64,000 nucleotides of DNA from assembly GCA_965197475.1 (NCBI GenBank), contig CBDANF010000003.1:928001-992000 (forward strand). Reading direction: 5' to 3'. Below the pieces are notes generated by a model that saw only the letters and a list, made by a program, of their open reading frames with translations, had not been told where the DNA came from and did no database searches. This stretch comes from Candidatus Poribacteria bacterium (lineage in GTDB: Bacteria; Poribacteria; WGA-4E; WGA-3G). How positions within the stretch are numbered: the first letter of the stretch is position 1; every line of letters starts with the position of its first letter. Below are positions 14,089-40,786 of the stretch, one piece after another. The position numbers and the translations under genes are program-made.

Positions 14089-15074
14089 GGCTCATGTAAA
14101 AAGTAAGTGCTATTTTTTCAAAGTTATGTTAGCGTGTTACCTATGGACTTTCCAATACAATCTCTCCTGGATGAAGAAAAAACTCAAGCGTGGGTGTTGG
14201 ATCATTTCCACCTTCAAGGGCTGTGTTGCCCAAAATGCCAAGCGAGCGTGGCGGAGGCACGCAAGTTCCGTCCGACTGAAACAAGTGGTCTACAAGTGTA
14301 TCGCTGCAAACACTGTGAGAGCATCTACAACCTCTATACCGGGACGGTCTTTGCTGGCACGCAGTTTCGTCCCTCACAGGTCGTTCTGCTTTTGCGCGGT
14401 GTCTGTCAAGGTGTTTCAAGTGCACAACTCGGGTGTGAACTGGGTCTAAGTCGTCAAACCGTTCTTTCTATAAGACGTAAACTCCAAACTTCGGCAGAGC
14501 AGATACAACCCGAAGCTGCTTTACCTGATGCTGAAGTCGAAACAGATGAGATGTTTCAAAACGCCGGTGAAAAAGGCGATAAGCACGTTGATGCTTCGGA
14601 TCCGCCGCGTCGGCGTGGCAATAAACGCAGGGGACATGGGACTTATGACAATGATCGTCCGCCTATTGTTGGGACGAAAGGTCGCGAAAGCGGTCTCCTG
14701 AGATTACGTGTTGTGCGGCACACCGATTCTGCGACGCTTTCAACACACGTTCATCAGTGGACGTTGCCGACTTCAACGGTGTATACGGATGGTTGGCGTG
14801 GCTATAACCGTATTCAGCGCGCCCGTGAGATTGTTCTCCATAAGGATGGCGAGTGGGCAAGAGACGCAGACGGTGATGGTCTTTACGAGATCCATACAAG
14901 GACGATTGAAGGTGCCTGGACGACGCTGCGAAACTTCCTTCGTCCCTTTCGTGGCGTTCATAAAAAGTTCCTCGCCGGTTACGTCGCAATCTGTGAGTTC
15001 GTCATGAATCTAAAAGCTGTCAGTGTTGATTTTATAGCAAAACTCGTCAAAAGCACTTACTCTTGACATGAGCG
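14089..15074 (+). mobile_element. IS1595-family IS (986 bp, no cargo)
   Basis: IRs GGCTCATGTAAAAAGTAAGTGCT / AGCACTTACTCTTGACATGAGCG; 8-bp TSD ACTTTTTT at 14081-14088 and 15075-15082. Confidence 0.9.
14107..15066 (+). CDS. IS1595 transposase
   Basis: Zn ribbon CPKC...CKHC, VETDEM, YTDGW and TIEGAW motifs. The true start is probably ATG at 14143. Confidence 0.9.
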   Translation: MLFFQSYVSVLPMDFPIQSLLDEEKTQAWVLDHFHLQGLCCPKCQASVAEARKFRPTETSGLQVYRCKHCESIYNLYTGTVFAGTQFRPSQVVLLLRGVCQGVSSAQLGCELGLSRQTVLSIRRKLQTSAEQIQPEAALPDAEVETDEMFQNAGEKGDKHVDASDPPRRRGNKRRGHGTYDNDRPPIVGTKGRESGLLRLRVVRHTDSATLSTHVHQWTLPTSTVYTDGWRGYNRIQRAREIVLHKDGEWARDADGDGLYEIHTRTIEGAWTTLRNFLRPFRGVHKKFLAGYVAICEFVMNLKAVSVDFIAKLVKSTYS

Positions 15075-16091
15075 ACTTTTTTTAGCATAGGCTAAACCAC
15101 GATTTTTATACGCAATCGCACCATTGGGATTTAATTCAATCGCTTTGTTATGGTCTTCAATGGCGCGATCAACTTCTCCTTTGTCCTTGTAAATCACACA
15201 TCGATTGTTATATGCACTTGTATAATCAGGTTCCAGTTCAATAGCTTTGTCATAGTTTTGCAGTGCCATATCCATTTCACCCATGATACTGTAAACCTTG
15301 CCGAGATTGTAATAAGCACCAGCATTATTCGGTTTTAGTTCTATTGACTTTTTAAGGTCTGTGAAGGCTTTTTCAATCTCACCTTTTGCGCCGTAAGCAC
15401 TTCCTCTATGGTTATAGGCCTCAGCATAATTTCGGTTCAACTCTATTGCTTTATTGTAGTTTTTAATAGCGAGATCTAACTCACCTTTTCTGAAGTAAGC
15501 ATTTCCGCGATTGTTATATGCACTAGCATCATCTGGGTCTAATTCTATCGCCTTGTTGTAGTCTTCAATGGCGCGATCAACTTTACCTTTACTGAAATAA
15601 GCTGTCCCGCGGTTGCTGTAAGTCATAACATGATACGGATCACATTCTATCGCCTTGTTAAAATCTTTGATCGCTCTGTCAACCTCACTGTTGCTGAAAT
15701 AGGCTGCCCCACGGATGTTATATGCCATAGCATAATTTGGGTTTAGATTTATTGCAGTGTCATAGTCTGTGAAGGCTTTGTCAAACTCGCCCTTTCTGTT
15801 GTAGGCATTTCCGCGATTGTAGTAGACAAGGGGACTATCTGGGTCAAGTTCTATTGCTTTGTTATAATCTTTCGCAATGAGTAGTTTTGGACTTGAGAAA
15901 AATTTTAAAAAATCGCTATAAAGCCTTGTGTCCACTGGGTTTATATGGTATAATATAGATAAGAAAATAGGGGGTTGGTAGCCCCCTAAATGAACACAAA
16001 AAGCGAGTTGCTTTTTGACGGTTCTAATCTTATCTGGTATTATATCAGAAATCCGTCAGAAAAAGCAACTCCTATTTCAAGGAGTTATCTG

Positions 16092-16973
16092 ATGGATTTG
16101 TTGAAGGTGATGGAGCGTTTTCCCGATCAAGAGAGTTGTATTTCGCATTTAGAGAAGATTCGGTGGCGAGGTAAACCTGTGTGTCCGCATTGTGAAAGCG
16201 ATCATATAGGAGAACGGACAGAAACAGAAATCGGTCGTATCGGTCGTTGGAACTGCCACGAGTGCCAAGTGAGTTTCAAGGTGACGTGCAGGTCGGTGTT
16301 TCACGGGACAAAGATAGCGTTACAGAAGTGGTTTTTGGCTATTTCGTTGATAACGAATGCGAAGAAAAGTTTGTCAAGTCATCAACTTGCGCGCGATTTA
16401 GACTTGAATCAAAAGACAGCATGGTATATCATGACTCGTATCCGTGCTGAAATGGCAAAGAAAGGTAACGTGCTACTACAAGGCATCATAGAGGCAGATG
16501 AAACTTACATCGGGGGTAAACCTCGTAAGCCTAATAAGAAGGAAGACCACGTGCCTGCCAAGCGTGGACGTGGAACAGAGAAAGACGCTATTATCGGGGC
16601 AGTACAGCGGGGCGGGAAAGTTGTAGCACAACTCGCTAAAGATTTGACAGGACGGACTATTTTAGACTTTATCCGAAGAGTCGTCAAAGTTGAGGATTCG
16701 GAGTTGATGACCGATGAGTATAAGGCGTATCTCGCTATCGGCAAGGAGATGAAACACCATATCATAGATCATCAAACGCAATTTGTTGAGGGTGATGTCC
16801 ACACAAACACAATTGAGGGGTTTTGGAGTCTACTCAAACGAGCTTGGTATGGAAGTCATCACCACTACTGGACTAAATATACGCCCCTGTATGTAGCAGA
16901 GGCGTGCTATAAATACAACTATAGGAGCATTGACAGTATCTTTGATAAGTTTGTTAATGAAAGTATGCGGTGA
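16092..16973 (+). CDS. IS1595 transposase (copy A, 293 aa)
   Basis: CPHC/CHEC Zn ribbon, IEADETYIGG, MTDEY and HTNTIEGFWSLLKR. SD AGGAG precedes ATG 16092. Confidence 0.93.
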   Translation: MDLLKVMERFPDQESCISHLEKIRWRGKPVCPHCESDHIGERTETEIGRIGRWNCHECQVSFKVTCRSVFHGTKIALQKWFLAISLITNAKKSLSSHQLARDLDLNQKTAWYIMTRIRAEMAKKGNVLLQGIIEADETYIGGKPRKPNKKEDHVPAKRGRGTEKDAIIGAVQRGGKVVAQLAKDLTGRTILDFIRRVVKVEDSELMTDEYKAYLAIGKEMKHHIIDHQTQFVEGDVHTNTIEGFWSLLKRAWYGSHHHYWTKYTPLYVAEACYKYNYRSIDSIFDKFVNESMR

Positions 16974-16982
16974 TGGACACAA

Positions 16983-17255
16983 CTAAAGGTATGCCTTATC
17001 AATCTTGTTCTTTTTGTCATCAGGATTTGAGGGAAAATGCTGTGGAAGTTCAAAAGTTGGCTTTCCATCTTTCAGAGCATCGATCATGTCAAGAGCAAAT
17101 TCCAACCTCTCATTGTCCGTGTCAAAAGGTTTCTGAATCACTACGCGAAAATTTGTATCAAGTTTTACAAGGGCGAGTTCTACAAAACTCTCTGTATGTA
17201 AGGCTAAAAGTGAAAAATCAACAGGATCGGAAGGCGGCTTGAATATTACCCACAT
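16983..17255 (-). CDS. IS cargo protein, 90 aa, unknown function (distant paralog of 26059-26331)
   Basis: Strong SD (AAAGGAGA); FDTDNERLEFALDMIDAL aligns ungapped with FKSKEEMLTTFDNFMDAL. Confidence 0.65.
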   Translation of the reverse strand: MWVIFKPPSDPVDFSLLALHTESFVELALVKLDTNFRVVIQKPFDTDNERLEFALDMIDALKDGKPTFELPQHFPSNPDDKKNKIDKAYL

Positions 17256-17311
17256 GGGTTTAGTCTCCTTTGGGGTTAGAGGGGACAGAGTCCCCTCGTT
17301 GGTTGGAATTG

Positions 17312-17701
17312 CTAATACCCGTATGGAGAATCAGCAGCTGAAATTAAAATTATCCAAAGTCCCACCATAGTGCCAGTTCCAATAACACATCCTATTGTAG
17401 CATGTGTTATTTGGTCGTTTTTCACAAGTTTTTGATAAATGCTTGTGTAATAAGCAACATATTCTGGTGATTTTCCAAGCAATTTTTCTGGTAGTACCGT
17501 TGGTGTGACAACATACGCAATTAACATACCGGTAACACCAAGTAGACAACCAACAGTTCCCCATATTTGAGTGTTTGCAAGTGTTGCATCACGTCGTGCA
17601 TCAAATATTGCTTGCGCAGCATCACTTGTTTGTTGTGCAAGTGTGAGATATGGCGTAGTGAATAACATCACAACCATTATAAACGACAAAGTTTTCATCA
17701 A
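17312..17701 (-). CDS. IS cargo exported/membrane protein, 129 aa
   Basis: Signal peptide plus two hydrophobic segments; AAAGGA SD. Confidence 0.7.
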   Translation of the reverse strand: MMKTLSFIMVVMLFTTPYLTLAQQTSDAAQAIFDARRDATLANTQIWGTVGCLLGVTGMLIAYVVTPTVLPEKLLGKSPEYVAYYTSIYQKLVKNDQITHATIGCVIGTGTMVGLWIILISAADSPYGY

Positions 17702-17768
17702 TGTTCCTTTTGTGAGGTAAAATGTGTATGTAGGGGATCAAAAGACCCCCTACATGTTTGCAAGCGGA

Positions 17769-17900
17769 TTATTTACACCGCTTGTGAGGTTTGACAGTTT
17801 CTTTCACCGTTGTGGCGGGACGGCGTTTGTCCGTGCCTTTGGGAAGGAACCGTCCATCTTTGGCATCGCGTACACGCGTGCCAGTGGCTTTTTTAGCCAT
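17769..17900 (-). CDS. IS cargo small basic protein, 43 aa (MAKKATGTRVRDAKDGRFLPK...RRPATTVKET)
   Basis: GAGG SD before ATG 17900. The RDAKxGxF...RRPATTVxET pattern is, from memory, seen in a widespread family of tiny hypothetical proteins. Confidence 0.65.
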   Translation of the reverse strand: MAKKATGTRVRDAKDGRFLPKGTDKRRPATTVKETVKPHKRCK

Positions 17901-18007
17901 AGTATACCTCACTTTGCTTGAGATAAATTGGTGCATAGCGTATTTCCAGTGCGTTATGCACTGTTCAAGCATATAAAATTGATACGTTAAACGGGTATCG
18001 TTCGTAG

Positions 18008-18084
18008 GTTCGTTTACACCTTTCTATGGGTGAGGGCAGGACACAACACAAGGAGTGTTGCGATAGAAATCCTGCCCAACGAAC
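18008..18084 (-). ncRNA. Putative pseudoknotted structured RNA (cargo-operon leader, copy A)
   Basis: GUUCGUU-GGGCAGGA-UUUCUAU-CGCAACAC-uccuu-GUGUUGUG-UCCUGCCC-ucaccc-AUAGAAA-ggugua-AACGAAC; same topology as 25426-25507. Confidence 0.75.
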
Positions 18085-18092
18085 TTGAGAAT

Positions 18093-18122
18093 AGTATAAC
18101 ATGGAAAGAATTTGAGTGTCAA
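18093..18122 (-). promoter_or_regulatory. Inward sigma70 promoter of IS copy A cargo operon
   Basis: TTGACA-N18-TATACT with a TG extended -10. Confidence 0.75.
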
Positions 18123-18168
18123 GTGAAAAATTTGAGAAAAAATTTCAAGTCCAAAACTACTCATTGCG

Positions 18169-18270
18169 AAAAACTATTCCAGTTATTACACAAACAATGA
18201 CACCGATCCAAAAAAATATTGAAATGATAGCTGGTGTTATCATTGTTTTAAAATTTAGAAAATCTTTCAT
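18169..18270 (-). pseudogene. DUF4282-like membrane protein, 3'-truncated by IS copy A
   Basis: MKDFLNFKTMITPAIISIFFWIGVIVCVITGIVF ends exactly at the IR. Confidence 0.65.
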
Positions 18271-18298
18271 GTGGATTCCCCCGTTTTATCCGTTAAGC

Positions 18299-19060
18299 TC
18301 AGGATTTGTTTTTCACACCTTCGGCCATCAATTTATATTCCGCCGCTCCCGATGCAATCCATCCGCCGACACCTACGAGTAGAAACTGCACACCTGCCTT
18401 CACATATTTTTCAACGGTATCATCCATCGCCAATATGCCAGCGACACGACCCGCATCTTGGATACGTGCCAATGCCGTATCAATAGTATTTTGCACATCG
18501 GGGTGGTTATGATTGCCAATATGTCCCATTGAAGTCGCTAAATCTGAGGGTGCTACAAAAAACACATCAATATGATCAACGCTGAGGATTTCGTCCAAAT
18601 TGTTTACTGCAACAATATCTTCAATTAAGACCACGAGCAACGTCTGTGAATTGGCGACCTCAAAATAGTTGTCCACACCGTAACCTTGACGACTCGTGAA
18701 CATGCCTCGATGTCCGATCGGTGCGAACTTTCCGCCATCAACAACATTTTGTGCTTCTGCTTTCGTGTTGACATGTGGCACGACGATGCCCATCGCACCA
18801 CAATCCAACGTGCGGTAGATAAGTGCTTGATCGTTACGATTGACACGTACCACAGATGTCATGCCCCACAGATCGCATGCGCGTGTGAGATTCCCCAGAT
18901 TTGACGCATCTACATTGCCATGTTCACCTTCTAACCACACGCTATCATATCCGTTTGGACCGAAGGCATCAATATCATCTGCGTTCGTCAATCCTGCGAT
19001 GATGTATGTGAGCTCACCATCAGCCAACTTCTGTTTTATCCGATTTGGTCTTATTTCCAT
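18299..19060 (-). CDS. HpcH/HpaI aldolase family protein
   Basis: EGEHG, VRV, LDCGAMGIVVPHV, LIED and APSDL. Confidence 0.9.
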   Translation of the reverse strand: MEIRPNRIKQKLADGELTYIIAGLTNADDIDAFGPNGYDSVWLEGEHGNVDASNLGNLTRACDLWGMTSVVRVNRNDQALIYRTLDCGAMGIVVPHVNTKAEAQNVVDGGKFAPIGHRGMFTSRQGYGVDNYFEVANSQTLLVVLIEDIVAVNNLDEILSVDHIDVFFVAPSDLATSMGHIGNHNHPDVQNTIDTALARIQDAGRVAGILAMDDTVEKYVKAGVQFLLVGVGGWIASGAAEYKLMAEGVKNKS

Positions 19061-19080
19061 AATGTTTTATGTTCTCTCTT

Positions 19081-20463
19081 TCAGTTATTGGGTTTTGTAA
19101 GGAATTCTGTCGGTAACACTTGATGTACAGTATCAATCACCAATTGTTCAACACCAGGAGCAAATCGGGTTGGCTGCCCGAAATAGATCATTGCACCGCC
19201 ACCTTCGTATCCACCTTCAGCTAACACGCGTTCTGATGGAATATAGCCGGGGAATGCGTTTGCATAAGCACTTACCCATAGTCTTGTAGCATCAAATTCC
19301 TTTTTCAGACGCAGCGAAAAATCTACTACCACCTCACTTGCAAGGAAAAGCACTGCCAATTCATCACCGAACGTCCATGCCTGTATCGGATAGGATATTT
19401 CCGTCTTGATTGATTGTCCGTTTTTTAACATTTCAAGATGTTTTTTCGCATGGTATGCGGGTGCACCACCTTGTGCAGCCCGTGCCTCCCATTCTTCATG
19501 GGTCGGGAGTTTATCAAACGGTAAATTCACTCTCTCAAATACGCCTATAGGGACATTGGAAATGCTTATTGCCTCTCGTTCAAGTTGGTGTTCAACCTCT
19601 TGTGCAAGTGCATGTCCGTGTTCTTTTGCATAAGCGAGACGTGTTTCAAATACCTCTTGCTTTCCTTCAGGCATTGGTCGCATCCGTGACTCTGGGTTTG
19701 CGTCAGCCCCACAGCTGATCGTTATTAAGGCAGTTACGTCGGGCTGCGCTTTTTGAATCTCTTCTTGTGCATATCCTGCCCAGTCTCCACAGATATGGTT
19801 GTCCGAACCTGCTAACGTTGTGCAATGGCATGCGTAACTTGCCCACACAGCACGCAAAGTGCCATCTGCATCAGTAAACTGCATGACAGGTAATGAATGA
19901 TCGACAGGTCCACCATCTGTGCGCCGATTTTTTGCGAAACCGAGTTCTCCGATGTTCCATGCTAATTGACACGGTTTTCGCCTTGTGAGTGCCTCCATTG
20001 TGACAGTTTCCATCCAGTTAGCAAGTTGACGGGTGTATCGGTCAATCTTTTCTTGTTCTTCTGGCGAAATATCGGAACTGAAAATGAACGATGCAGCGTT
20101 TGTCAGGCACGGCGCGCTATGCGTATGTGTGAAACATGCAACAAAATTCTCCCGTGAGATTCCAGTTTTATGTTCTACGCGATGGGACACTTCTTCGGTC
20201 AACTCATCAGGTAACCCGCAATTTTCTACGGTTACCATGACCACGGGACCCTCTGCATCGCTACCAATGGCGAGTGCCTTCGCCCATATCCGCTGAATAA
20301 TACCTTCGGATTTTGTTCTCCGACTTCCGTAACCGTTGAGTCGAATTGGGTAATCGGGAGTAATGTCAATTTGTGCAACGCCAACTTCAATAAGAGTATC
20401 TCTATCTGTCATTTGAATTTCCTTTATACTATGCCACTTTTTCAAAGATAATACGTTTTTCAC
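19081..20463 (-). CDS. Neutral/alkaline ceramidase-like N-terminal domain protein
   Basis: DITP, THTHSAP, YACHCT, YIPS and GGYEG. The start is probably at MTDRD (~20412). Confidence 0.8.
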   Translation of the reverse strand: MKNVLSLKKWHSIKEIQMTDRDTLIEVGVAQIDITPDYPIRLNGYGSRRTKSEGIIQRIWAKALAIGSDAEGPVVMVTVENCGLPDELTEEVSHRVEHKTGISRENFVACFTHTHSAPCLTNAASFIFSSDISPEEQEKIDRYTRQLANWMETVTMEALTRRKPCQLAWNIGELGFAKNRRTDGGPVDHSLPVMQFTDADGTLRAVWASYACHCTTLAGSDNHICGDWAGYAQEEIQKAQPDVTALITISCGADANPESRMRPMPEGKQEVFETRLAYAKEHGHALAQEVEHQLEREAISISNVPIGVFERVNLPFDKLPTHEEWEARAAQGGAPAYHAKKHLEMLKNGQSIKTEISYPIQAWTFGDELAVLFLASEVVVDFSLRLKKEFDATRLWVSAYANAFPGYIPSERVLAEGGYEGGGAMIYFGQPTRFAPGVEQLVIDTVHQVLPTEFLTKPNN

Positions 20464-21425
20464 TCCACTTCCATTGCATCGGCAAAAACATCCTCAAGAG
20501 AGTGCCTTACCTCTCTCAATTGACGAAGTTGGACACCCGTTTCATGTGCCAACTTAAAGAAAAATGTTCCATCAGTCTGCTCTTGTTCGTTTGATGTCAC
20601 GCGGACGTGCCCATCTGGTCTTAACTCCGTATCGTAGGGATAAGGTTCTAAAGCAGCAACGTAAGCATCGCGGTCACCTACAATTTTCAGATCAAACGCT
20701 TGCCCGTGATTTTTTCTGAGTTCTTCTATCTGTCCTTGGACGACAAGGCTTCCATGAGACAGTGCCATTACGTCCTTACACGCGGATTCAACATCTGGTA
20801 AGAGATGTGAAGATAACAGGACATCTATTCCCTTATCCACGGCAATGTCTTGAACGAGCAAAAGCATCTCCTCTCTTCCAGTTGTATCCATGCCATTTGT
20901 GGGTTCATCAAGCAGTAGCAACTTCGGATCATGCACTAAGGCTTGTGCTAACTTAACACGCTGCCGCATACCTACTGAATATCCGCTGATAGGTCGGTAG
21001 CGTTCTTCATCAACACCGACATAATATAGCACTTCGTGTGATCGCTGCATCGCATCACGCGACGGCATGCCGCAGAGTTGACCGGCATAAGCAACAAGTT
21101 GAACGGCATTCATCTGAGGGATTAAGCAATCATCTTCAGGCATATATCCGACCTGTTGTCGGATATATGCCTGTTCGGTTTGCACATCCAATCCGAACAC
21201 TTTTGCTTCACCTCGGCTCGGTTGAATAAAACCGAGTAGCATCTTAATCAACGTGCTTTTTCCTGCGCCGTTAGGGCCCAGTAATCCAACAGCACCACCC
21301 TCTAATTCTACAGATAACTCGTTTAGCGCAGGATTTGTGCCAAAAAAGACTGATACGTTTTTTATTTCAATTAGCATTTTGTTTATGGATATGCCTATTT
21401 TATTGAGACAGCATTGAAAGCACAC
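20460..21425 (-). CDS. ABC transporter ATP-binding protein
   Basis: GPNGAGKST, YSVGMRQR, LLLLDEPT and SSH. The start is probably at MLIEIK. Confidence 0.92.
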   Translation of the reverse strand: MCFQCCLNKIGISINKMLIEIKNVSVFFGTNPALNELSVELEGGAVGLLGPNGAGKSTLIKMLLGFIQPSRGEAKVFGLDVQTEQAYIRQQVGYMPEDDCLIPQMNAVQLVAYAGQLCGMPSRDAMQRSHEVLYYVGVDEERYRPISGYSVGMRQRVKLAQALVHDPKLLLLDEPTNGMDTTGREEMLLLVQDIAVDKGIDVLLSSHLLPDVESACKDVMALSHGSLVVQGQIEELRKNHGQAFDLKIVGDRDAYVAALEPYPYDTELRPDGHVRVTSNEQEQTDGTFFFKLAHETGVQLRQLREVRHSLEDVFADAMEVE

Positions 21426-21454
21426 TTACAAAGCGCGCCTACAAGCAATGTCTA

Positions 21455-22570
21455 TTATGAATAAATTCGGTTTACGCGTTTTCCTATATTTGTTAAGATT
21501 TCATACGGAATTGTATCGGCTCGTTCAGCTATTTCACCAATTCCGATCTCTTCATTCCCCTGTTTGCCTATCAACACGACTTCATCACCAACAGAGACGT
21601 TATCTGAAAGTTCTAACTTAACCACCATCACATCCATACAAACACGACCAAGAATAGGGCGGCGCACCCCCCTAATTAACACCTCACCGATGTTAGAAAG
21701 TGTTCTCGTATAACCATCACCGTAGCCAACTTGTATGCCTGCCACACGGATTCTGCGCTGTGCCTTATATGTCAATCCGTAACTTACACCTTCACCTATT
21801 TCAATAGAGTCTACCCATCCGACACGCGCCTTCCACGCGAGCGCAGGTTGCAACTGAATCGGTTTTTCCTTTGCGGGATAGATCCCGTATAGACTCAAGC
21901 CGGGACGGACAGCATCAAAATGAGATTCCAGTATCGCAAGAGCCGCCGCGCTGTTCGCGACATGTTTCAGCGGCACATTGGAAACACTCGTAAACACGGA
22001 AGAAAACCTGTTTAGTTGAAGATGTGCAAAACTTTTATCTACCTCGTCTGCTGTTGCAAGGTGTGTAAAAATACCTTCGATTTCAAGCCCAGGCAGTGTT
22101 TTTAGTGTTTCAAGAAATTGTGCTGTTTTGGTGTAGTGAATCCCACTTCGATTCATTCCGGTGTTAATATCAACGTGAACTTTTACTTTTTTTGTAGATG
22201 TAAGTTGCAATCGGGTCTTACCATCTTCTACTACTTTGTTCAACTTTTGCGCTAAAGTCAAATTATCAACCGCCGGAGTTAACTCATAGGTAACGATTTC
22301 TTCTGCACAATCCGGCAAAGGACTAAACAGAATTAGGATTGGCTTATGAATTCCTGTCTGACGCAGTTCAATGGCTTCGTCAACTGTTGCTACTGCAAAC
22401 ATATCCGCAATTGTTTGCAATGCCTCTGCAACAGGAATTGCACCGTGTCCGTAGGCATCCGCTTTCACAACAGCGATTAGCCGCTTTCCTGTGTGCGACT
22501 TTATCGCTTCAGCGTTGGCTCGAATTGCCCTCAAGTCAACTTCTGCGTGTGATTGGCTACTTGATCCCAC
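21455..22570 (-). CDS. alr: Alanine racemase
   Basis: AVVKADAYGHG, TGMNRSG, VRPGLSLYG, GYGDG and GRVCMD. Confidence 0.96.
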   Translation of the reverse strand: MGSSSQSHAEVDLRAIRANAEAIKSHTGKRLIAVVKADAYGHGAIPVAEALQTIADMFAVATVDEAIELRQTGIHKPILILFSPLPDCAEEIVTYELTPAVDNLTLAQKLNKVVEDGKTRLQLTSTKKVKVHVDINTGMNRSGIHYTKTAQFLETLKTLPGLEIEGIFTHLATADEVDKSFAHLQLNRFSSVFTSVSNVPLKHVANSAAALAILESHFDAVRPGLSLYGIYPAKEKPIQLQPALAWKARVGWVDSIEIGEGVSYGLTYKAQRRIRVAGIQVGYGDGYTRTLSNIGEVLIRGVRRPILGRVCMDVMVVKLELSDNVSVGDEVVLIGKQGNEEIGIGEIAERADTIPYEILTNIGKRVNRIYS

Positions 22571-22587
22571 AACTATTTCCTGTCGCG

Positions 22588-23343
22588 TTAACGTATTTCT
22601 GACAGAGTGCCTTCAACCCCGATCAACGTCAGTTTCTGTAACAACCATGCATCTTCCATTACGTTCACGATCTCCAGCGTAAGGGTAAGCTCATAATTCC
22701 CCGGGGCAGTAAGAATTGAGGAAACATCTACTTCATCTGCAATTATTAACGGTCCGTCGGGCTGTACGGCACCAATTGCGCGGTCTCGAATAACATTCGT
22801 CCCGTTGATAGCTATACTCAAAAACGCGCCTGCGCGCGCTGTCTCCTGAAGTATTTCATATCGCAACGTGATGTTCTCACGAAACAGTTCTTCAACGTTC
22901 AACCGATATGTCAAAGTCTGCGTGAAGGTGTTCCCTTGCCAATAGCGGTTTGGCATAACAACGATCGCATGACCGATATTTACTTCAATTCGAATGTCCT
23001 GACGTTTAGTTATTGTTCCATCAGACACTTCAAGGGTTATCATATAGGTGCCAGCCGATTCAGGTGCAACATAAACAACGCTTGTCCCATTCCCTGTAAT
23101 CCTTCCGCCGCTTGCGTCCCATTCGTAAACCAGCACCGCAGGATCCCCAGAATAGTTTACCGATGCTGTGATGGTTGTAGTATCACCAATATTGAGTGTT
23201 TGAGACTCGGATTCTAAATCAATATCAAGCATCTCCTTATCCATGCTCAGCAAGTTGTTTGTATCACAAGCTGATATTAGACTGGCTGCACACAATAAAC
23301 AGAGGATTTTAAAATAAAAAAATTGGGTGTTGTAGATTTCCAT
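22588..23343 (-). CDS. PKD/Ig-like domain lipoprotein
   Basis: Lipobox ISAC; YEW...G...V.Y.AP...GTY.ITLEVSDG. Confidence 0.7.
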   Translation of the reverse strand: MEIYNTQFFYFKILCLLCAASLISACDTNNLLSMDKEMLDIDLESESQTLNIGDTTTITASVNYSGDPAVLVYEWDASGGRITGNGTSVVYVAPESAGTYMITLEVSDGTITKRQDIRIEVNIGHAIVVMPNRYWQGNTFTQTLTYRLNVEELFRENITLRYEILQETARAGAFLSIAINGTNVIRDRAIGAVQPDGPLIIADEVDVSSILTAPGNYELTLTLEIVNVMEDAWLLQKLTLIGVEGTLSEIR

Positions 23344-23548
23344 TAATTCTATTATACTATAGAGACTGAATTTGTGCTATAATTAAAAGGTTTTATGTAG
23401 ATGGATCACATTGCATACTTATAGTTTTGATTGGCAAATTGCAGAACTAATGTTTTTGTGTATTTGCAGTCAAACGGGATTTTGATAGAGTTTAAAAACA
23501 TTTGTTTCTTAAAAATAGCGTTTTGGTTGATTTCAAAGGGAATTCAAA

Positions 23549-25297
23549 TTGTTACGTTTTCCGAATCCTGGATCAGACATTAACAGTTTCATCAGAATAT
23601 TCTACGAGATTTTTGATGCCCTAAAGGATCGAGAATCCTTTTCTTTAGATGACATAACATCAACTCTGGTTGAGCGCAACCTAGCTACTTCCTGTGGATT
23701 TGCTGGAGAAGAAGCCCTTTCACACTCAACACGGAAGGATAGGAGCCGTGATCCTTTGTATAATCAGTCCAAAATGTACTCTGAACTATTCAAAATATTA
23801 GGTTGGATCCATCCATTCAAGGGGAAACAATTAGACTTCCAATTTACTTTTTTTGGCGCACATGTCGTTAGGGCAATACAGGATCCGGCGGCGATTTTCA
23901 GAGAATCTGCTTTAGGAGTTGCTTATCCAAATGAAATTTTAGATGTCAAAGGTAACCACCAACTAAGACCATTTGCAACTATATTACGAACATTAGGGGC
24001 ACTAGACGGTTTGTTAGCACGCGATGAATTAATAATTGGTCCGATGTGTCTAGATAACGATCGAGACGATAATCTTTTCAGTAACATGATTAAGGAAATT
24101 CATACTTTAAGAGGTTATTGGAAAGCTTTAGATAACAAGATGAAAGAAATTGCCAACCAAAGAAACATTAAACCAAATACAATGAAAAATTACACACGAT
24201 TCCCTTTAGCAGTGTTAAGATGGACAGGTTGGACAAAAGATGAAACCATAAAAGTCATTTATGATAAGGCAATAAAATTTGACAAATTGACAGAAAAAGG
24301 GAAAATGGTTTTAGAATTTCTTGAAAAATGTAAAGATATTAGAAAATTCGATTTGGAAAAAATCAACAGAGAAACAAAAAACGCTATTATCCGATTCAGT
24401 TTTTATCAGATGTTAGAAAGAGCGGGTTTTGATACTGCTCCCGTTGATTCCATGCTTTCTAACGATAAAACTTTAATCACAAGTTACTTAGGTTCTGAAA
24501 ATCGTCCTGTCCTTTTTTCCCCATTCCAAGAAATGTCATCTGATTACCTACTGAATATTTTCCCCAATCCGTCAGGAAGCGAAACAACTCAAGCACGCCA
24601 AAAGTTGATTGCTTCAACTACTAATGTCGAAAGACGTGAATTTCTGTACTCTAATGTAGAACTTAAAATCAGTAGTGCATCAGATCTGAAGATTGTTGAA
24701 CCTGCCGATTTTAGGAACAAAATGCTGAATCAGAATATTGACGCACCGATACTGAATTTGTTCGAAATGGCAATTACAAAATATAGAAGTCTTGATCCTG
24801 CAATTGAACCTATTGCTATTCAATATTTAGATGCCAATCAGGATAAGTTCTATCCTCTGATTGTAAAACTGTTTAATGCAATTGGATATGATTGTAAACT
24901 TTCTCGGCCTGGAGTAAACTATGAAAGATGGGATGCAATGATTATAGATAAACAGCACTCTATGCCAATAGAGATTAAGTCTCCTGGAGAAGAAATATTT
25001 CTATCAGTCAAAGCTATCAGACAGGCATTGGAAAACAAAGTGATCCTACTTGCTAGGTCCGCGTATCCAACAAAGTTCCACGACACATCTCTCGTTGTCT
25101 GCTATAATTTGCCTAATAACCGGTCAGAAGTAAATTCACTGATTAACGATATTTTTGAAACTTATAAAATAGTAATTGGAGTGATAGATTTTAGATCTTT
25201 ACTAAAAATTGCTGGATCACAGTTATTTCTGACAAAACAACATCGTAAAGACCAATTGGAAAAGTTACATGGTATCATCAAATTATCGAATTCTTAA
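23549..25297 (+). CDS. Putative restriction endonuclease large subunit (N-terminal recognition region + C-terminal PD-(D/E)XK)
   Basis: C-terminal RWDAMI...PIEIK motif; low GC; clustered with two DNA methyltransferases. Confidence 0.75.
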   Translation: MLRFPNPGSDINSFIRIFYEIFDALKDRESFSLDDITSTLVERNLATSCGFAGEEALSHSTRKDRSRDPLYNQSKMYSELFKILGWIHPFKGKQLDFQFTFFGAHVVRAIQDPAAIFRESALGVAYPNEILDVKGNHQLRPFATILRTLGALDGLLARDELIIGPMCLDNDRDDNLFSNMIKEIHTLRGYWKALDNKMKEIANQRNIKPNTMKNYTRFPLAVLRWTGWTKDETIKVIYDKAIKFDKLTEKGKMVLEFLEKCKDIRKFDLEKINRETKNAIIRFSFYQMLERAGFDTAPVDSMLSNDKTLITSYLGSENRPVLFSPFQEMSSDYLLNIFPNPSGSETTQARQKLIASTTNVERREFLYSNVELKISSASDLKIVEPADFRNKMLNQNIDAPILNLFEMAITKYRSLDPAIEPIAIQYLDANQDKFYPLIVKLFNAIGYDCKLSRPGVNYERWDAMIIDKQHSMPIEIKSPGEEIFLSVKAIRQALENKVILLARSAYPTKFHDTSLVVCYNLPNNRSEVNSLINDIFETYKIVIGVIDFRSLLKIAGSQLFLTKQHRKDQLEKLHGIIKLSNS

Positions 25298-25388
25298 GCA
25301 AAAGAAAACATCCAAAAGACTAAAAACAATAGCAAAAGATATCGCAATGAGTAGTTTTGGACTTGAAAATTTTTCTCAAATTTTTTAC

Positions 25389-25417
25389 TTGACAAAATCC
25401 TGCCAGTATAGTATCCT
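25389..25417 (+). promoter_or_regulatory. Inward sigma70 promoter of IS copy B cargo operon
   Basis: TTGACA-N17-TATCCT; the -35 lies in the conserved subterminal sequence shared with copy A. Confidence 0.7.
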
Positions 25418-25425
25418 ATTAACAT

Positions 25426-25507
25426 CACGAAAACTTTGGTAGAGAATGTTACCCGCGTCGCAAGGCGCGGTCTCTACCATAACCAAGTAACATTGGAAAG
25501 TTTCGTG
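25426..25507 (+). ncRNA. Putative pseudoknotted structured RNA (cargo-operon leader, copy B)
   Basis: CACGAAAACUUU-GGUAGAGA-AUGUUAC-CCGCGUC-gcaa-GGCGCGG-UCUCUACC-auaaccaa-GUAACAU-ugg-AAAGUUUCGUG, with a GNRA tetraloop. Confidence 0.75.
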
Positions 25508-25628
25508 TGTATAGTTCTCGTGAACCAAACAGTTAACATCATATTTATAGAATCAGCGACATAATAATCGCTTTGCATTTAGCTTATTACATCGCTGAAA
25601 CCACTCCCTTTTACACAAGGAGACTATT

Positions 25629-26003
25629 ATGTCTTTGTTTTCAGATTGGAAAGAACGCAGGAAACACAAAGATAGAGATAAGTGGCTTATAAGGGAATTC
25701 CCTCGTCTTGCATTGACACATTATGAAACCTTGCGTGATCTAAACCCTTCTGATACTCCCAAAAAGCAATTGTATGAAACGATTATTAGAGGGTTTGCTC
25801 TCACCTTTGGTGTGCCCAATGAAAAGCGCGATGAATTTACCGAATGCATTTTGCATACAGCAACTCTTGGTGAACCATCTGAACCTTTTGGTTTACGTAT
25901 GATTGTTGTCTCACTTATATGCTCGACATGGAGCTTAAAGAGTGAACTATCTATTGCTGTAGCAATAACCAGCGTGTCAGAAGTAATCCCCGAATACTTA
26001 TAA
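25629..26003 (+). CDS. IS cargo protein, 124 aa, unknown function
   Basis: AAGGAG SD; no recognisable motif; unrelated to the copy A cargo. Confidence 0.65.
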   Translation: MSLFSDWKERRKHKDRDKWLIREFPRLALTHYETLRDLNPSDTPKKQLYETIIRGFALTFGVPNEKRDEFTECILHTATLGEPSEPFGLRMIVVSLICSTWSLKSELSIAVAITSVSEVIPEYL

Positions 26004-26058
26004 CAACTCTGACAACGAGGGGACCCTGTCCCCTCTAACTCCAAAGGAGATTAAAATC

Positions 26059-26331
26059 ATGTTTTTCGTTGAATATACCGAAAATAATGAAAGAAAAGCA
26101 TTAAACTTGGCTATGTGTCAGAGAATTGAAACTGAAGAACGCCACATAAGCGCAAAAAGTAGTTTCTACATCTACATACATCACAAAGAACGCGCAAAAA
26201 TGGTGTTAGAATTCAAATCAAAAGAGGAAATGTTAACCACTTTTGATAATTTTATGGACGCACTCAACCGGTGTCAAGCTCACTTGTTTTCCCAGAATGT
26301 TTTGTCTGAGGAACATTATCGGCAGTCCTGA
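26059..26331 (+). CDS. IS cargo protein, 90 aa, unknown function
   Basis: AAAGGAGA SD; weak similarity to 16983-17255. Confidence 0.65.
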   Translation: MFFVEYTENNERKALNLAMCQRIETEERHISAKSSFYIYIHHKERAKMVLEFKSKEEMLTTFDNFMDALNRCQAHLFSQNVLSEEHYRQS

Positions 26332-26493
26332 ATTCTTCAACATACCTGTGAAATGCATCGATGAAATATTCAGCAACGATACAAAATTCTTCAAAGAATT
26401 CTGTTTCAGAAAGAGCAGATCTTGAAGGACTATCACTTTTCTTATCTAGTCCGTGCTGACTCAATACATCTGCCATAGAATCTCTAACTTCTC

Positions 26494-27375
26494 TCACAAC
26501 ATACTTTCGTTGACAAACTTGACAAACAAGCTGTCAACGCTCCTATAGTTATACTTATAGCACGCTTCCGCCACATACAGCGGTGTGTATCCTGTCTGAT
26601 AATGGTGATGCTGTCCATACCAAGCCCGTTTGAGTAGTGACCAGAACCCTTCAATCGTGTTTGTATGTGTATCACCATCAGCAAACTGCACCTTGTGGTT
26701 GATAACAGCGTGCTTCATTTCCTTTCCAATAGCGTTGTAAGCCTGATACTCATCGGTTATTAGTTCCGAGTCCTTTAGGTTTACAGCACTCCGAATAAAC
26801 TCAAGGATAGTGCGTCCTGTGAGGTTATGTGCCACCTGTGCGACAACCCTACCCCCACGTTGCACTGCTCCTATTATAGCAGTTTTCTCCGTTCCTCTGC
26901 CACGTTTATGTGGTTCATCATCTTCACGTTTGTTCTTTTTACGAGGTTTACCGCCAATATAGGTCTCATCTGCTTCAATGATACCTTGTAGTAAAGCCCC
27001 GCCTTTCTTTGCCATTTCAGCACGAATACGTGCCATCATAAACCATGCTGTCTTTTGATTCAAGTCTAAATCGCGCGCCAGTTGATGCCTTGACAAACTT
27101 TTCTTCGCATTCGTTATCAACGAAATAGCCAAAAACCACTTCTGTAACGCTATCTTTGTCCCGTGAAACACCGACCTGCACGTCACCTTGAAACTCACTT
27201 GGCACTCGTGGCAGTTCCAACGACCGATACGACCGATTTCTGTTTCTGTCCGTTCTCCTATATGATCGCTTTCACAATGCGGACACACAGGTTTACCTCG
27301 CCAACGAATCTTCTCTAAATGTGCAATACAACTCTCTTGATCGGGGAAACGTTCCATGACCTTGATTAAATCCAT
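26494..27375 (-). CDS. IS1595 transposase (copy B, 293 aa)
   Basis: Same motifs as copy A; N-terminal ~110 aa nearly identical to copy A. Confidence 0.93.
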   Translation of the reverse strand: MDLIKVMERFPDQESCIAHLEKIRWRGKPVCPHCESDHIGERTETEIGRIGRWNCHECQVSFKVTCRSVFHGTKIALQKWFLAISLITNAKKSLSRHQLARDLDLNQKTAWFMMARIRAEMAKKGGALLQGIIEADETYIGGKPRKKNKREDDEPHKRGRGTEKTAIIGAVQRGGRVVAQVAHNLTGRTILEFIRSAVNLKDSELITDEYQAYNAIGKEMKHAVINHKVQFADGDTHTNTIEGFWSLLKRAWYGQHHHYQTGYTPLYVAEACYKYNYRSVDSLFVKFVNESML

Positions 27376-28597
27376 CAGATAACTCCTTGAAATAGGAGTT
27401 GCTTTTTCTGACGGATTTCTGATATAATATCAGATAAGATTAGAACCTTCAGAAAGCAACTCTGCTTTTTGGGTTAATTGGGAGGCTACAACCTCCCTTT
27501 TTTCTTATCTATATTATACCATATAAACCTTGTCTACACAAGGGTTTATCACACTTTTTCACATGTTTTTTGCAAGTCCAAAACTACTTACTGTGAAAGA
27601 TATTATTCCTATTTCAATTGAATGGGGCGAGAGTGCAAAACAACCTATAATAAAATTTTCTGACGGTGGGCAGGTATTAGGTTCTTGTATCCACTGTATG
27701 AATCCGCCTTGTATTGAATATACAGGTAACGAAATTTACTCAGAAACATTTCGGGAGTTTCCTTCAGATAGAAACTTAGAAGTATGTCCAACTAAAGCAA
27801 TAAACTGGCCTCAGGACAACGATTCCCCTACAATAGATAGTGAAGCATGTATCTTCTGCGGTATATGCGTTAGCCGCTGCCCCGTTGCAGCAATTTACCT
27901 TGACTCGGAAGTAGGAACAGCTATATTAAACGATCAACCAAACGAGTACTTTCTACTTCAAAACGAAGAAGTTTCTGAAAAGGTTCAAAAACCTTTACTT
28001 CAGAAGTTTTCGCAAATCTCTGAAAATGGAATTTTCCTATTAGAAAACGAACACATTCTCCAGCAGTTCTTTGAAAAATTTAAGTCCGTCGCTACTGGAC
28101 AAAGTACCCAGTTCCCTAACCATCTTGTTCGCAACTTAATGATAGAGTTAGGTATTAATACATTGATGAGTCGGCGTGGAGACACTAATATTCGAATGGA
28201 CATTGTTTTTGAACAAATTGGAAAAACTTGCGGAACATGTGAAGTGGAATTAGGCAATGGAGTACTAGATGCGCCCAGAAACCTACTTGATAACGTTGCA
28301 GTTTTGGTATCAAGATACAAAATTAGCAAAGAGAACATTTTGCCGTTAGTCGTGACTTTTTCATTACCTAATCACCGTTCAGAATATTGGAATGTAATAA
28401 AAGATATAAAACAAGTGTTAAACCTAAAAATTAATTCTCTGACTGTTGGGATGTTAGTTTTGTTGGTTTGGAACAGAGTTAAAGTATCTCTCGATTCAAG
28501 TGAGATCTTTTATGCTGACTCAGAACAATATTCTGTAAGGGAGAAATTTGAATCTGTACTTGGAAGAGAACTAAATGTTACAATGGGTTATCCTGGG

Positions 28598-35261: not shown

Positions 35262-35298
35262 TTGGATACCTTCTTTCAGTCTTAGGTTGGGTGTTCTC

Positions 35299-35790
35299 TT
35301 AACAGATAAGGTCAACATTAACGCCATGGTTTGCAAGCGCGTTCGTAAATTGAAGCCAGCCTCTATCTATCGCCAATAAAATAGTCGCTGTTTGTCCAGA
35401 TTCCTTCTGATACGCAAGCACAACAGCAATAAATTTTCGATCATTTTTGTGGAAACTCGTTAACGCGTCATCGCTGTTTGGAAACTCTTCAAAATCTGTG
35501 CCGTTTCCCGCTAATGGTGTGATCTTAATCATCGTACAAATGTCTGGATACCTCCAATTTTGCAGCAATCTTTTCACAAAACCGTCACCAACCCCTTTTT
35601 GTCTAACTACATTTGCATTTCTCTTGTACTCATTAAGAATTCTCCATCTATCGTCAACAACTGTCCTTATCTGTTGTAAAGTAATCTGTTTAAGTCGCTG
35701 CTGACAACGTTCTATGCAGTCCAAAGAGGCATGGTCTGCTTCGCCATTTGCGATGACGATAACGTTCGTATCTACGATAACTGCGTTCAT
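35299..35790 (-). CDS. PIN-domain-like nuclease (copy 2)
   Basis: VIVDTNV, EY, DRKFIAV and DRGW acidic pattern. Confidence 0.7.
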   Translation of the reverse strand: MNAVIVDTNVIVIANGEADHASLDCIERCQQRLKQITLQQIRTVVDDRWRILNEYKRNANVVRQKGVGDGFVKRLLQNWRYPDICTMIKITPLAGNGTDFEEFPNSDDALTSFHKNDRKFIAVVLAYQKESGQTATILLAIDRGWLQFTNALANHGVNVDLIC

Positions 35791-37028
35791 TAACCCTCCA
35801 TTTTCTTTCGGCGTTCCATTTCTGCTTCAGCTCTTGCAAACAGCTCGCCCATCTCATTGCCAAAAAAGTTTTCTGGCCAGTTTGAAATGTTCCCAAATTC
35901 ATCCATTTTTAAGCGTTCAATATTAGAAACGCCTTCATCGTTCCGACAAAAATAGAGGGCAGTTTTATCAACGCTAATCTTTTCTTCAGCGATGCGCCGC
36001 TGCAAACGATTTAGCAGGTGTTCACTATGGCTTTCTACCAGAATCTGCAAGTTGCGTTCATTGACAACCTCTATTAGAAGATCCGCCAATTCAGATTGAA
36101 CCTTTGGATGAAGGTGAATACCGGGTTGTTCCAGAATCAATGTTGAACCCACTGGGGCATAGTAACAAAGCACTAAAACCGGTAAAAATTGGGATAAACC
36201 GTAACCCATGTCAGGCAGGTTTACCTTAGCACTGTCAGCTGTTTTTTGAATAAAAACATCATAATCCCGATCCACATTTGCCCCAGTCCGTTCAATTAAA
36301 AAAGAATATGCGAGTTCCATCTCTCGGAGCCACGCAGAGATTCGTTCCTCAATTGGAACATTTTTCCCCTCATAAGGTGTTGTTTGTCGATCTATGCGCG
36401 CGGAAAGTAGAGCGGAAATCATTTCCTCACCGCGTTGTCCTATACTTTCAGGATGCGTCCCTTCCCAATGATAGTGGCGTTGTGGTTGAATACGGACCGG
36501 ACCAATGTAACGAACGCGATCAAAAAGTTCCTTAAGTTCAGATGTAAATTGATTTTTTGAATTCTCAGCTGATCCAGACCAACAGAGTTCTTCGTAGATT
36601 CTTTGTGAGAAATCCGCGCATATTAATTCCTGATCTCCATACTTGAAACGGTAATAACCTTTTAGGCCAGGTAGCGTATTCTCTTGCCATAGGGCAGTAA
36701 CTTCAAAAGTGAAACTGTCAACAGTCAGTGGATTGACTTCAATGGTAAATGGATTTTGAATCTTACATCCAAACCCTAACTCAAGTGATTCCTCTACGTT
36801 ATGCCCATGAATTACCTCACGGAAACTTCCAAGATTGACAAGAGAATTTTCATCACCGAAGAAGAGGATCTCCTCGGTTCCAATCGTCTGCTTAAGCAAT
36901 AGCAGCATCTGCAACAGGCTACTCTTCCCAGAACTATTTGTCCCGAAAAAGCCTGTCAACGGTGCAAGTTTCACCTCAACACTATCTTTCCACGACTTGA
37001 AGTTTTTCATTCGGATATGCGTAATCAT
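35790..37028 (-). CDS. ABC/AAA_21-type ATPase with DUF3696-like C-terminus (copy 2)
   Basis: MKNFKSW, GTNSSGKSS, MGYGLSQ, LEQPGIHLHP, ESHSEH and WPENFF. Confidence 0.85.
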   Translation of the reverse strand: MITHIRMKNFKSWKDSVEVKLAPLTGFFGTNSSGKSSLLQMLLLLKQTIGTEEILFFGDENSLVNLGSFREVIHGHNVEESLELGFGCKIQNPFTIEVNPLTVDSFTFEVTALWQENTLPGLKGYYRFKYGDQELICADFSQRIYEELCWSGSAENSKNQFTSELKELFDRVRYIGPVRIQPQRHYHWEGTHPESIGQRGEEMISALLSARIDRQTTPYEGKNVPIEERISAWLREMELAYSFLIERTGANVDRDYDVFIQKTADSAKVNLPDMGYGLSQFLPVLVLCYYAPVGSTLILEQPGIHLHPKVQSELADLLIEVVNERNLQILVESHSEHLLNRLQRRIAEEKISVDKTALYFCRNDEGVSNIERLKMDEFGNISNWPENFFGNEMGELFARAEAEMERRKKMEG

Positions 37029-39930: not shown

Positions 39931-39990
39931 TTTTTCTGCCTCCGTGTTGACGCTATTTGTCTGAACCAGGGTTTTCAAGATTAGCAGACC

Positions 39991-40020
39991 GTAGGTTGGG
40001 TTGAGCTTGCGAAACCCAAC
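39991..40020 (+). repeat. GTAG REP flanking RAYT
   Basis: GTAG-GTTGGGTT-gagcttgcga-AACCCAAC, inverted relative to the copies at 40.6-40.8 kb. Confidence 0.85.
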
Positions 40021-40032
40021 AAATGATCCTTT

Positions 40033-40581: not shown

Positions 40582-40772
40582 AACCTTTATTTTGAATGAT
40601 GCGTTGGGTTTCGCAAGCTCAACCCAACCTACAGACTGAACTCATACACATAACCTTTATTTTGAATGATGCGTTGGGTTTCGCAAGCTCAACCCAACCT
40701 ACAGACTGAACTCATACACATAACCTTTATTTTGAATGATGCGTTGGGTTTCGCAAGCTCAACCCAACCTAC
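40571..40772 (-). repeat. Tandem repeat, ~2.9 x 70 bp, each unit containing a REP plus the RAYT translation start
   Basis: Unit CTCATACACATAACCTTTATTTTGAATGATGCGTTGGGTTTCGCAAGCTCAACCCAACCTACAGACTGAA starts at 40571, 40641 and 40711. Confidence 0.92.
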
Positions 40773-40786
40773 GGGCTACTGAACTG

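Follow-up and report, generated by a model that had tools for sequence, protein, structure and literature searches.

A pseudoknotted three-way-junction RNA ahead of selfish genes in Candidatus Poribacteria, possibly a bistable 5' leader

Introduction

Structured RNAs encoded by transposons, such as the omega and bridge RNAs, have recently proved central to how these elements work. The 5' end of a transcript can also set its translatability, through a 5' segment complementary to the translation start region or through alternative partners of the 5' end, as described for IS10 fold-back inhibition and for the tac and fbi pairings of hok messenger RNA (mRNA). According to PMC2988022, leader hairpins of the phage T4 homing-endonuclease genes I-TevI, segB, mobE and seg43(25) are thought to limit translation, which makes them a precedent for leader structures restraining genes of this kind. 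Here we analyse a 64,000-nucleotide (nt) stretch of Candidatus Poribacteria DNA (GenBank assembly GCA_965197475.1, contig CBDANF010000003.1, positions 928,001 to 992,000), referred to as the window, in which two IS1595-family elements, A and B, each carry a pseudoknotted RNA motif behind a promoter. A preliminary description of the window had pointed out the two copies and listed several possible functions. The motif, of about 75 bases, is a new family of structured RNA without a match in Rfam.

Results

Both copies share one architecture, in which helix P1 closes a three-way junction with two arms, the first made of P2, a 7-nt bulge and P3, and the second of the P4 hairpin. Since the 7-nt loop of P4 is complementary to the bulge, the pseudoknot is a loop-bulge kissing contact inside the three-way junction. 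In copy B (25426..25507, + strand), P1 pairs 25426-25437 with 25497-25507 and P2 pairs GGUAGAGA (25438-25445) with UCUCUACC (25471-25478); the bulge AUGUUAC lies at 25446-25452, P3 (CCGCGUC-GCAA-GGCGCGG) at 25453-25470 and the segment J at 25479-25482, while P4 (CCAA/UUGG, 25483-25486/25493-25496) exposes as its loop the pseudoknot strand GUAACAU (25487-25493). In copy A (18008..18084, - strand), the corresponding features are P1 at 18084-18078/18014-18008, P2 at 18077-18070/18041-18034, the bulge UUUCUAU at 18069-18063, P3 at 18062-18042 and P4 (CACC/GGUG) at 18032-18029/18020-18017, with the loop AUAGAAA at 18027-18021. P2 would stack on P1 and carry the bulge ahead of P3, and the loop-bulge pairing would lock the arms next to each other. 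In both copies, minimum-free-energy folding yields the nested part (z -6.25 and -5.80), which none of 200 shuffles equalled. Folding is also good for the antisense strands (z -4.10 and -5.97), and thus the strand is not given by energy alone.

All the pairings in the preliminary description are present where it had placed them, and its observation that the two copies keep one topology and its pairing with differing sequence is borne out by covariation across 75 distinct homologues. Beyond that description, we found that a covarying P4 hairpin surrounds the 7-mer, that P1 has a second 3' strand, and that the motif is not restricted to IS1595.

For the covariation count, 105 matches were reduced to 75 distinct rows and scored against our own structure with the pseudoknot included; the chimeric locus L061, L072 and some loci from outside Poribacteria were left out, and the truncated rows L082, L136 and L145 were kept. 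Standard pairs occupy 96.1% of the 2359 pair cells, as compared with 76.1% in shuffles and 34.5-43.3% after displacement of the partners by 1-3 columns. Because the rows share descent, the comparison with shuffles exaggerates the significance; the slid control is free of this weakness. Changes on both sides were seen in 30 of the 32 pairs: 7 of 7 in the pseudoknot (97.1% of cells paired), 7 of 7 in P3 (98.3%), 3 of 3 in P4 (95.8%), 6 of 8 in P2 (99.3%) and 7 of 7 in P1 (89.0%; the presence of two alignment registers depresses this value). Because the alignment was made to fit the nested helices, their figures are favoured. The search and alignment model did not include the pseudoknot, whose covariation is therefore independent of that fit. 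G-U combinations fill 117 cells and A-C combinations 29, an excess that indicates RNA of the promoter-sense strand. The covariation, this excess and the promoter geometry shown below uphold the earlier proposal of a pseudoknotted, promoter-sense structure at the RNA level. A chance origin is excluded by the covariation in the 75 homologues and not by the structure descriptor used below, and it is close to certain that the motif is a real, conserved, sense-strand RNA structure.

No family of Rfam 15 matches the motif: there were no hits in the whole window at the gathering score, only chance U8 and mir-1781 hits away from the motif in 17700-25800 at E<=10, and only mir-3912, also away from it, in 20 loci with diverse copies at E<=1. 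The preliminary description had mentioned a motif named 'Poribacteria-1'. Four accessions considered under this name, RF03042, RF03043, RF03044 and RF03046, are porB, Prevotella-2, Proteo-phage-1 and Pseudomonadales-1, respectively, and the name appears neither in the searched literature nor in the main text of PMC5737381, which covered 224 motifs in 2017. If 'Poribacteria-1' is part of Rfam 15 it does not match our motif, and it may be described in the supplements of that paper. Literature searches on IS1595 passenger genes, TnpB leaders, junction pseudoknots and Poribacteria noncoding RNA, judged by titles and abstracts, brought up no description of the motif and, as had been supposed, none of an RNA of IS1595 elements.

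The motif lies at a fixed place behind a promoter. Copy B is preceded by the sigma-70-type promoter TTGACA-17-TATCCT (25389..25417, +), with a predicted start 1-2 nt before P1, and copy A by TTGACA-18-TATACT with an extended TG (18093..18122, -; 11/12 matches). A TTGACA promoter thus stands ahead of each motif as first described, but it is the -10 box and not the -35 box that lies about 8 nt before P1. Among 82 distinct copies, 68 have a -35/-10 pair that ends 6-12 nt (mode 8) before P1; at positions shifted by 60 nt, which served as a control, 1 of the 82 does. From the promoter sequences, the fold is predicted to start 0-2 nt from the 5' end of the transcript. In element A the motif is not followed by a terminator, and in element B the one candidate is a weak site of 5 pairs, about 50 nt downstream; folding of whole leaders gave no additional convincing conserved helix.

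A near-copy of the 3' strand of P1 (P1'), which we call P1'', is found 6-12 nt downstream of the motif, at 25513..25523 (+) for copy B, where it is an alternative partner of the 5' strand, and at 18000..18005 (-; ACGAAC) for copy A. A perfect partner for the 7-nt 5' strand is present within +3 to +32 in 48 of 78 copies, as opposed to 6 of 78 in an interval further downstream and 0 of 78 on the reversed strand. The triplets P1/P1'/P1'' covary in more than 10 sequences, for example CATAGTT/AACTATG/AACTATG, TATTGCT/AGCAATA/AGCAATA and CATTACA/AGTAATG/AGTAATG. Seven leaders were folded with P1' blocked, and in six of them the best fold then used P1'', which cost 0.3-5.8 kcal/mol; RNAalifold chose P1:P1'' for 13 IS1595-type leaders. 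The pair P1'/P1'' offers two closings of almost equal energy and suggests a two-state closing helix. In tnpB elements the spacer contains a GGAG box and the start codon lies at the end of P1''; in the leaders of GIY-YIG genes the start codon is about 25 nt further on, and in IS1595 leaders it also lies further downstream.

Among 84 distinct copies, the majority are followed by an open reading frame (ORF) on the same strand. In about 34 copies of this set the ORF has, as read by eye, a TnpB-like N-terminus 7-16 nt after the motif, and all five tnpB-like ORFs tested match OrfB_IS605 and the Cas12f-like TNB domain in Pfam. Other downstream ORFs were confirmed as three N6_N4 DNA methylases, one MvaI/BcnI restriction enzyme and one GIY-YIG protein, and the remaining copies precede basic peptides of 42-56 amino acids (aa) or small proteins with signal-like N-termini. 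Two viral contigs carry the motif together with a GIY-YIG gene (PHROG homing endonuclease, E 5.5e-20), both next to a portal gene (E 1.5e-11). These varied contexts indicate that the motif belongs to selfish genes generally and not to IS1595. The maps of the window elements agree with the earlier statement that the motif heads the cargo genes of both; the association with IS1595 as such does not hold, given that cargo-less IS1595 elements lack the motif and that it also heads tnpB, methylase, restriction-enzyme and GIY-YIG genes.

In the genome of the window, the IS1595 inverted repeat occurs 74 times at <=3 mismatches (0 for the reversed-pattern control) and forms 34 pairs. Five IS1595 variants of the motif, with one architecture and different sequences, are found in cargo-bearing size classes: A (9 copies; elements of 2296, 2420 and 2080 nt), B (4 copies; 2253 nt), B' (4 copies; 2298 nt), C (6 copies; 1970 nt) and D (1 copy; 2404 nt). 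The kissing pair shows a compensated change between B (AUGUUAC/GUAACAU) and B' (AUGUUAG/CUAACAU). The motif is absent from the seven cargo-less IS1595 copies (1139/1140 nt) of this genome. A structure descriptor found three further copies outside IS1595, named E1, E2 and F; with G-U allowed the descriptor was unspecific (31 hits, 11 distinct, in the real genome and 12 hits, 12 distinct, in the reversed genome) and served for candidate finding only. E and F are backed by covariance model scores (33 and 22.5 bits), promoters and P1''. E2 lies about 20 nt before a 401-aa ORF that matches OrfB_IS605 and the Cas12f-like TNB domain and is therefore a TnpB, and upstream of E2 are a hairpin and a promoter of the kind seen at the left end of IS605-type elements. 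Altogether there are 29 motif copies in this genome, including the decayed copy G.

Some loci show damage or rearrangement. In variant G (G000:C3:1701533-1701603, -; L034 3534-3604) part of P2 is repeated in place of the bulge, which abolishes the kissing pairs; an intact relative in L050 has AUAUGAG/CUCAUAU. The chimeric copy L061 1501-1575 (G023), with a 5' half like L036, a 3' half like L044, and both P1 and the kissing pairs broken, looks like a recombinant between two leaders. A CRISPR-like array, in which spacers of about 40 nt separate four 37-nt repeats and the final repeat is degenerate, was also observed on the minus strand (L031 ~6640-6900 and 8751-8787; G000:C3 ~2862640-2862900 and 2864751-2864787). 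A lone extra repeat adjoins the truncated tnpB left end that carries motif E1, and the intact tnpB element of E2 lies just downstream of the array.

Tandem arrangements were found in three genomes, in which 2-3 motif units with an 84-nt period stand behind one consensus promoter (three units in L065 and two each in L066 and L067). The arrays sit at a solitary IS1595 end between host genes, and they have no convincing ORF behind them, no toxin-like ORF and no P1''. Two of the array loci are syntenic and belong to close relatives with 91-95% DNA identity; as the locus is common to these two only, its retention says little.

As MAFFT alignments of eight variants were out of register, a covariance model (R1) was built from B, B' and C with a hand-written structure, and a second one (R2) from 30 hits. 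R1 matched 36 of 61 related genomes, namely 32 of 36 in family f1, 3 of 8 in f3, 0 of 9 in f2 and 0 of 7 in f4, and R2 matched 96 of 151 genomes sampled across the phylum, with 78 of 99 in f1, 17 of 26 in f3 and 0 of 25 in seven other families. These counts are lower bounds for a B/C-like consensus, since the first-look filter for whole genomes misses A, D, E and F even in the genome of the window. An exact P2-strand pattern retrieved 71 stretches among species-representative genomes, nearly all of them titled Candidatus Poribacteria. Pattern hits in Bryobacterales, Paenibacillaceae, Alphaproteobacteria and Bacteroidales are not the motif (0 of 4 match R2), while 4 of 4 unnamed contigs from metagenome-assembled genomes with the pattern match R2. 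Of 14 hits from collections of viral and metagenome sequences, 10 are genuine copies.

The IS1595 elements and other features of the window

Elements A and B can be assigned to the IS1595 family by the DDE transposase with an N-terminal zinc ribbon found in A and by the 23-nt terminal inverted repeats present at both ends of both elements. Element B (25343..27595, +; 2253 nt, in a class with 4 copies in the genome) consists of inverted repeat, promoter, leader RNA, two cargo ORFs, convergent transposase and inverted repeat. Its cargo ORFs (25629..26331, +) encode 124 aa (25629-26003) and 90 aa (26059-26331), and its transposase gene (26494..27375, -) is 82% like that of element A in DNA; the Pfam search was run on the A copy. 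Element A (15873..18168; 2296 nt) is in the opposite orientation, with leader and cargo on the minus strand and the 327-aa transposase at 15990..16973 (+; DDE_Tnp_IS1595, E 3.9e-36; Zn_ribbon_IS1595, E 1.8e-9). Of its three cargo ORFs (16983..17903, -), 17769-17903 encodes a basic peptide of about 44 aa, 17312-17701 a protein of 129 aa that has hydrophobic stretches, and 16983-17255 a protein of 90 aa. In both elements the two or three small cargo ORFs run toward the transposase gene, behind the promoter and the motif. The transposase halves are 82% alike, whereas the halves with motif and cargo cannot be aligned past the promoter. The cargo proteins match no family in Pfam, NCBIfam or PADLOC, and no large homology or structure searches were made for them.

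Other hairpins accompany these genes. One lies just 5' of the transposase start codon (~15955-15990, +, with a match at the B end near 27380-27480, -) and covaries between element classes (GGGGGUUGGUAGCCCCC versus GGGAGGUUGUAGCCUCCC); it may mask the ribosome-binding site. A conserved imperfect hairpin GUGCAUAACGCA ... UACGCUAUGCAC at 17931-17963 (-), between the leader and the ORF for the 42-56-aa basic peptide, has many relatives and recurs in several IS1595 cargo operons of different genomes, where it may be a second RNA element or an operator. A 50-nt block (17252-17301 and 26013-26062) is 90% alike in A and B, despite the differing cargo around it, and contains a hairpin GAGGGGAC...GUCCCCUC, a Shine-Dalgarno box and the beginning of the 90-aa ORF.

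Elsewhere in the window, seven 102-nt repeats (15105-15871) lie within a 292-aa ORF (15057-15935, -), whose product, judging by its sequence, looks like a repeat protein of the tetratricopeptide (TPR) type; the inverted repeat of element A overlaps the 5' end of this ORF. Three tandem 70-nt repeats at 40571-40780 each contain the hairpin GGGUUGAGCUUGCGAAACCCAAC and have inverted partners at 39970-40027, about 570-710 nt upstream, and a region is duplicated at 35287-36698 and 38165-39600 with 74-90% identity and a spacing of about 2.9 kb.

Discussion

We tentatively propose that the motif is a cis-acting, bistable 5'-terminal leader that controls translation or stability, a proposal to which we give slightly less than an even chance. 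In its favour are the promoter at a fixed distance, the placement of the fold at the 5' end, the absence of a strong terminator and the presence of an ORF behind the motif. The motif would be a portable cis-acting leader for selfish genes, and its compact fold with a base-paired 5' end would stabilise or insulate the mRNA. The 5'-terminal strand could close the junction with either P1' or P1'', and an exchange of P1' for P1'' would gate the stretch just downstream. In tnpB elements the gated stretch is the start codon, and the exchange would limit the translation of potentially harmful nucleases, while in the other leaders P1' and P1'' may merely keep the 5' end paired. Whereas the structure, its covariation, the strand, the promoter geometry, the gene contexts and P1'' are shown by the data, we infer where transcription starts, that the leader switches and that it affects translation or stability. 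Among the functions considered in the preliminary description, a leader or 5' stabiliser fits best.

Several observations weigh against this proposal. Outside the tnpB elements P1'' does not overlap the ribosome-binding site, so that gating of the start codon is not the general function. The presumed switch between P1' and P1'' has no recognised trigger, and a plain hairpin would suffice for 5' protection, which leaves the elaborate fold unexplained. The arrays with neither an ORF nor P1'' fit an RNA that acts on its own. Contigs assembled from four sponge metatranscriptome runs, all belonging to one study, span the leader and cargo of element B and speak for the proposal, but they give no ends, strand or level of the RNA, carry-over of DNA is possible and the element is multi-copy. 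The starts of these contigs at 25387-25402 in the four runs were rejected as transcription start, since they are probably the point where the element variants diverge, and the uncovered flanks prove nothing.

It is also possible, though doubtful, that the motif is released from the transcript as a stable small RNA that mobile elements carry along and that acts in trans, be it as an antitoxin-like RNA or, towards a host nuclease or RNA-binding protein, as a decoy or sponge. Such a role is kept alive by the tandem arrays behind one promoter without a convincing ORF, by the many copies per genome (29 here) and by the conservation of the fold with free sequence, as shape recognition would predict; moreover, the AU-rich spacer after P1' could be a cleavage site. 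However, 68 of 82 copies have their own promoter directly before an ORF, the terminator is missing in element A and weak in B, the downstream proteins are too diverse for a single cognate RNA-protein pair, and the array locus is shared by two close relatives only. Type III toxin-antitoxin systems consist of short RNA repeats in tandem, a terminator and an endoribonuclease toxin gene, in this order. This option of the preliminary description was rejected for the window, where both elements have a single unit, with the terminators as just stated, and their cargo has no hit in PADLOC, Pfam or NCBIfam.

A more speculative idea, which we consider unlikely but not fanciful, is that the motif represents a new class of portable, bistable, self-acting RNA module, based on a host factor bound by shape or on a closing-helix switch, that is passed as an 'expression head' among unrelated selfish elements, namely IS1595 transposons, IS605-type tnpB elements, restriction-modification genes and phage homing endonucleases, the non-coding arrays being domesticated copies.

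A riboswitch, in which the junction or the kissing contact would bind a small molecule or ion and so choose between P1:P1' and P1:P1'', is improbable. The promoter-proximal leader with two alternative closing helices, the tandem arrangements known from some riboswitch classes, and a three-way junction with a distal tertiary contact like that of the purine and tetrahydrofolate (THF-I) aptamers would agree with it. Nevertheless, metabolite riboswitches have a conserved unpaired pocket for the ligand and go with genes of one pathway, whereas variants A to F have no conserved unpaired core, the junction strands are of 0, 1-4 and 0-6 nt, seven variants in one genome share almost no sequence, and the genes encode selfish nucleases (TnpB, GIY-YIG and a restriction enzyme), methylases and small proteins of no known family, not metabolic or transport functions.

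Even less probable is a self-cleaving ribozyme that would trim the 5' leader, with exchange of the P1' and P1'' strands after cleavage. Small ribozymes are common beside selfish genes, and the order of P2, bulge, P3, P2', linker and bulge partner resembles the nested pseudoknot of ribozymes like that of hepatitis delta virus (HDV) and a permuted pistol fold. Yet there are no invariant bases over variants A to F, and each known type differs in its details. HDV-like ribozymes have a nested double pseudoknot whose P3 is of 3 bp, together with a P1.1 helix, a basal G-U pair in P1 and a J4/2 that is unpaired and contains the catalytic C; in our motif P3 has 7-8 bp and a tetraloop or pentaloop, so that P1.1 cannot form, the bases 5' of the 3' pseudoknot strand, equivalent to J4/2, are paired in the covarying P4, and the first P2 pair is G-C in 65 of 75 rows. 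The conserved hammerhead core (CUGANGA / GAAA / UH) has no counterpart in the short, unconserved junction strands. In pistol ribozymes a hairpin loop pairs with an internal loop that has conserved bases and the cleavage site on its 3' side; here the loop-bulge pairing is present, but P3 runs straight into P2', leaving no base opposite the bulge, where pistol cleaves. Both the riboswitch and the ribozyme had been offered in the preliminary description, and the lack of conserved unpaired bases disfavours them.

The least probable of these alternatives is a folded single-strand DNA recombination site, similar to integron attC, for the exchange of cargo genes: a structure-conserved, sequence-free element ahead of very different cargo and the joining of two variants in L061 would suit it, but G-U prevails over A-C (117 versus 29), the promoter is at a fixed distance, folded DNA sites are not known to have a loop-bulge pseudoknot, and L061, without P1 and pseudoknot, looks like damage. 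The remaining probability belongs to some explanation that we have not considered. A guide RNA of the omega or bridge type, which would have a segment matching target or donor DNA and changing with the insertion site, was also rejected, as copies of one variant are identical at 4-10 different sites and the five IS1595 variants have one common inverted repeat with differing bulge and loop.

The motif is of interest because one compact pseudoknotted fold, whose covariation is exceptionally clear, is common to four unrelated kinds of selfish gene in an uncultivated phylum of sponge symbionts. The duplication of the closing strand as P1'' is unusual in design and opens a conformational switch to direct testing. 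Should the motif be an expression or stability module, it would illustrate how mobile DNA can take its own promoter and leader unit from element to element, and RNA engineering would gain a small scaffold that is free of sequence constraints. Should it act in trans, mobile elements would have a further, new class of RNA.

Comparison with known systems

As in IS10 and hok, there are two alternative partners for the 5'-terminal strand. However, those systems depend on the transcript start or on 3' processing and have no conserved junction or pseudoknot module, and in our motif P1'' overlaps the start codon in tnpB elements only. Like the omega RNAs of TnpB and IscB and the IS110 bridge RNA, the motif is a structured non-coding RNA within an insertion sequence, partly beside tnpB. 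In contrast to them, it lies 5' of tnpB, inside the left end and with its own promoter, has no segment that varies with the flanking DNA, and also heads methylase, restriction-enzyme and homing-endonuclease genes.

Type III antitoxin RNAs such as ToxI are likewise pseudoknotted RNAs right behind a promoter and ahead of protein genes, and in some genomes the motif also forms tandem arrays; its unit of about 75-84 nt, however, is longer than the 34-45 nt of those RNAs, the window elements have a single copy and their cargo matches no PADLOC model. The parallel placement of two junction arms by a loop-loop or loop-bulge contact is shared with the purine and THF-I riboswitches and with the hammerhead and pistol ribozymes, all of which have conserved cores, whereas the motif has none.

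With the T4 leaders (PMC2988022), the motif has in common an RNA structure directly upstream of a selfish nuclease gene and a promoter in fixed register, and it also heads GIY-YIG genes. The T4 leaders are simple hairpins that bury the ribosome-binding site, with the late promoter of the gene starting inside the hairpin, while the motif is a three-way junction with a kissing contact, its predicted start includes the whole fold, and the ribosome-binding site lies outside it.

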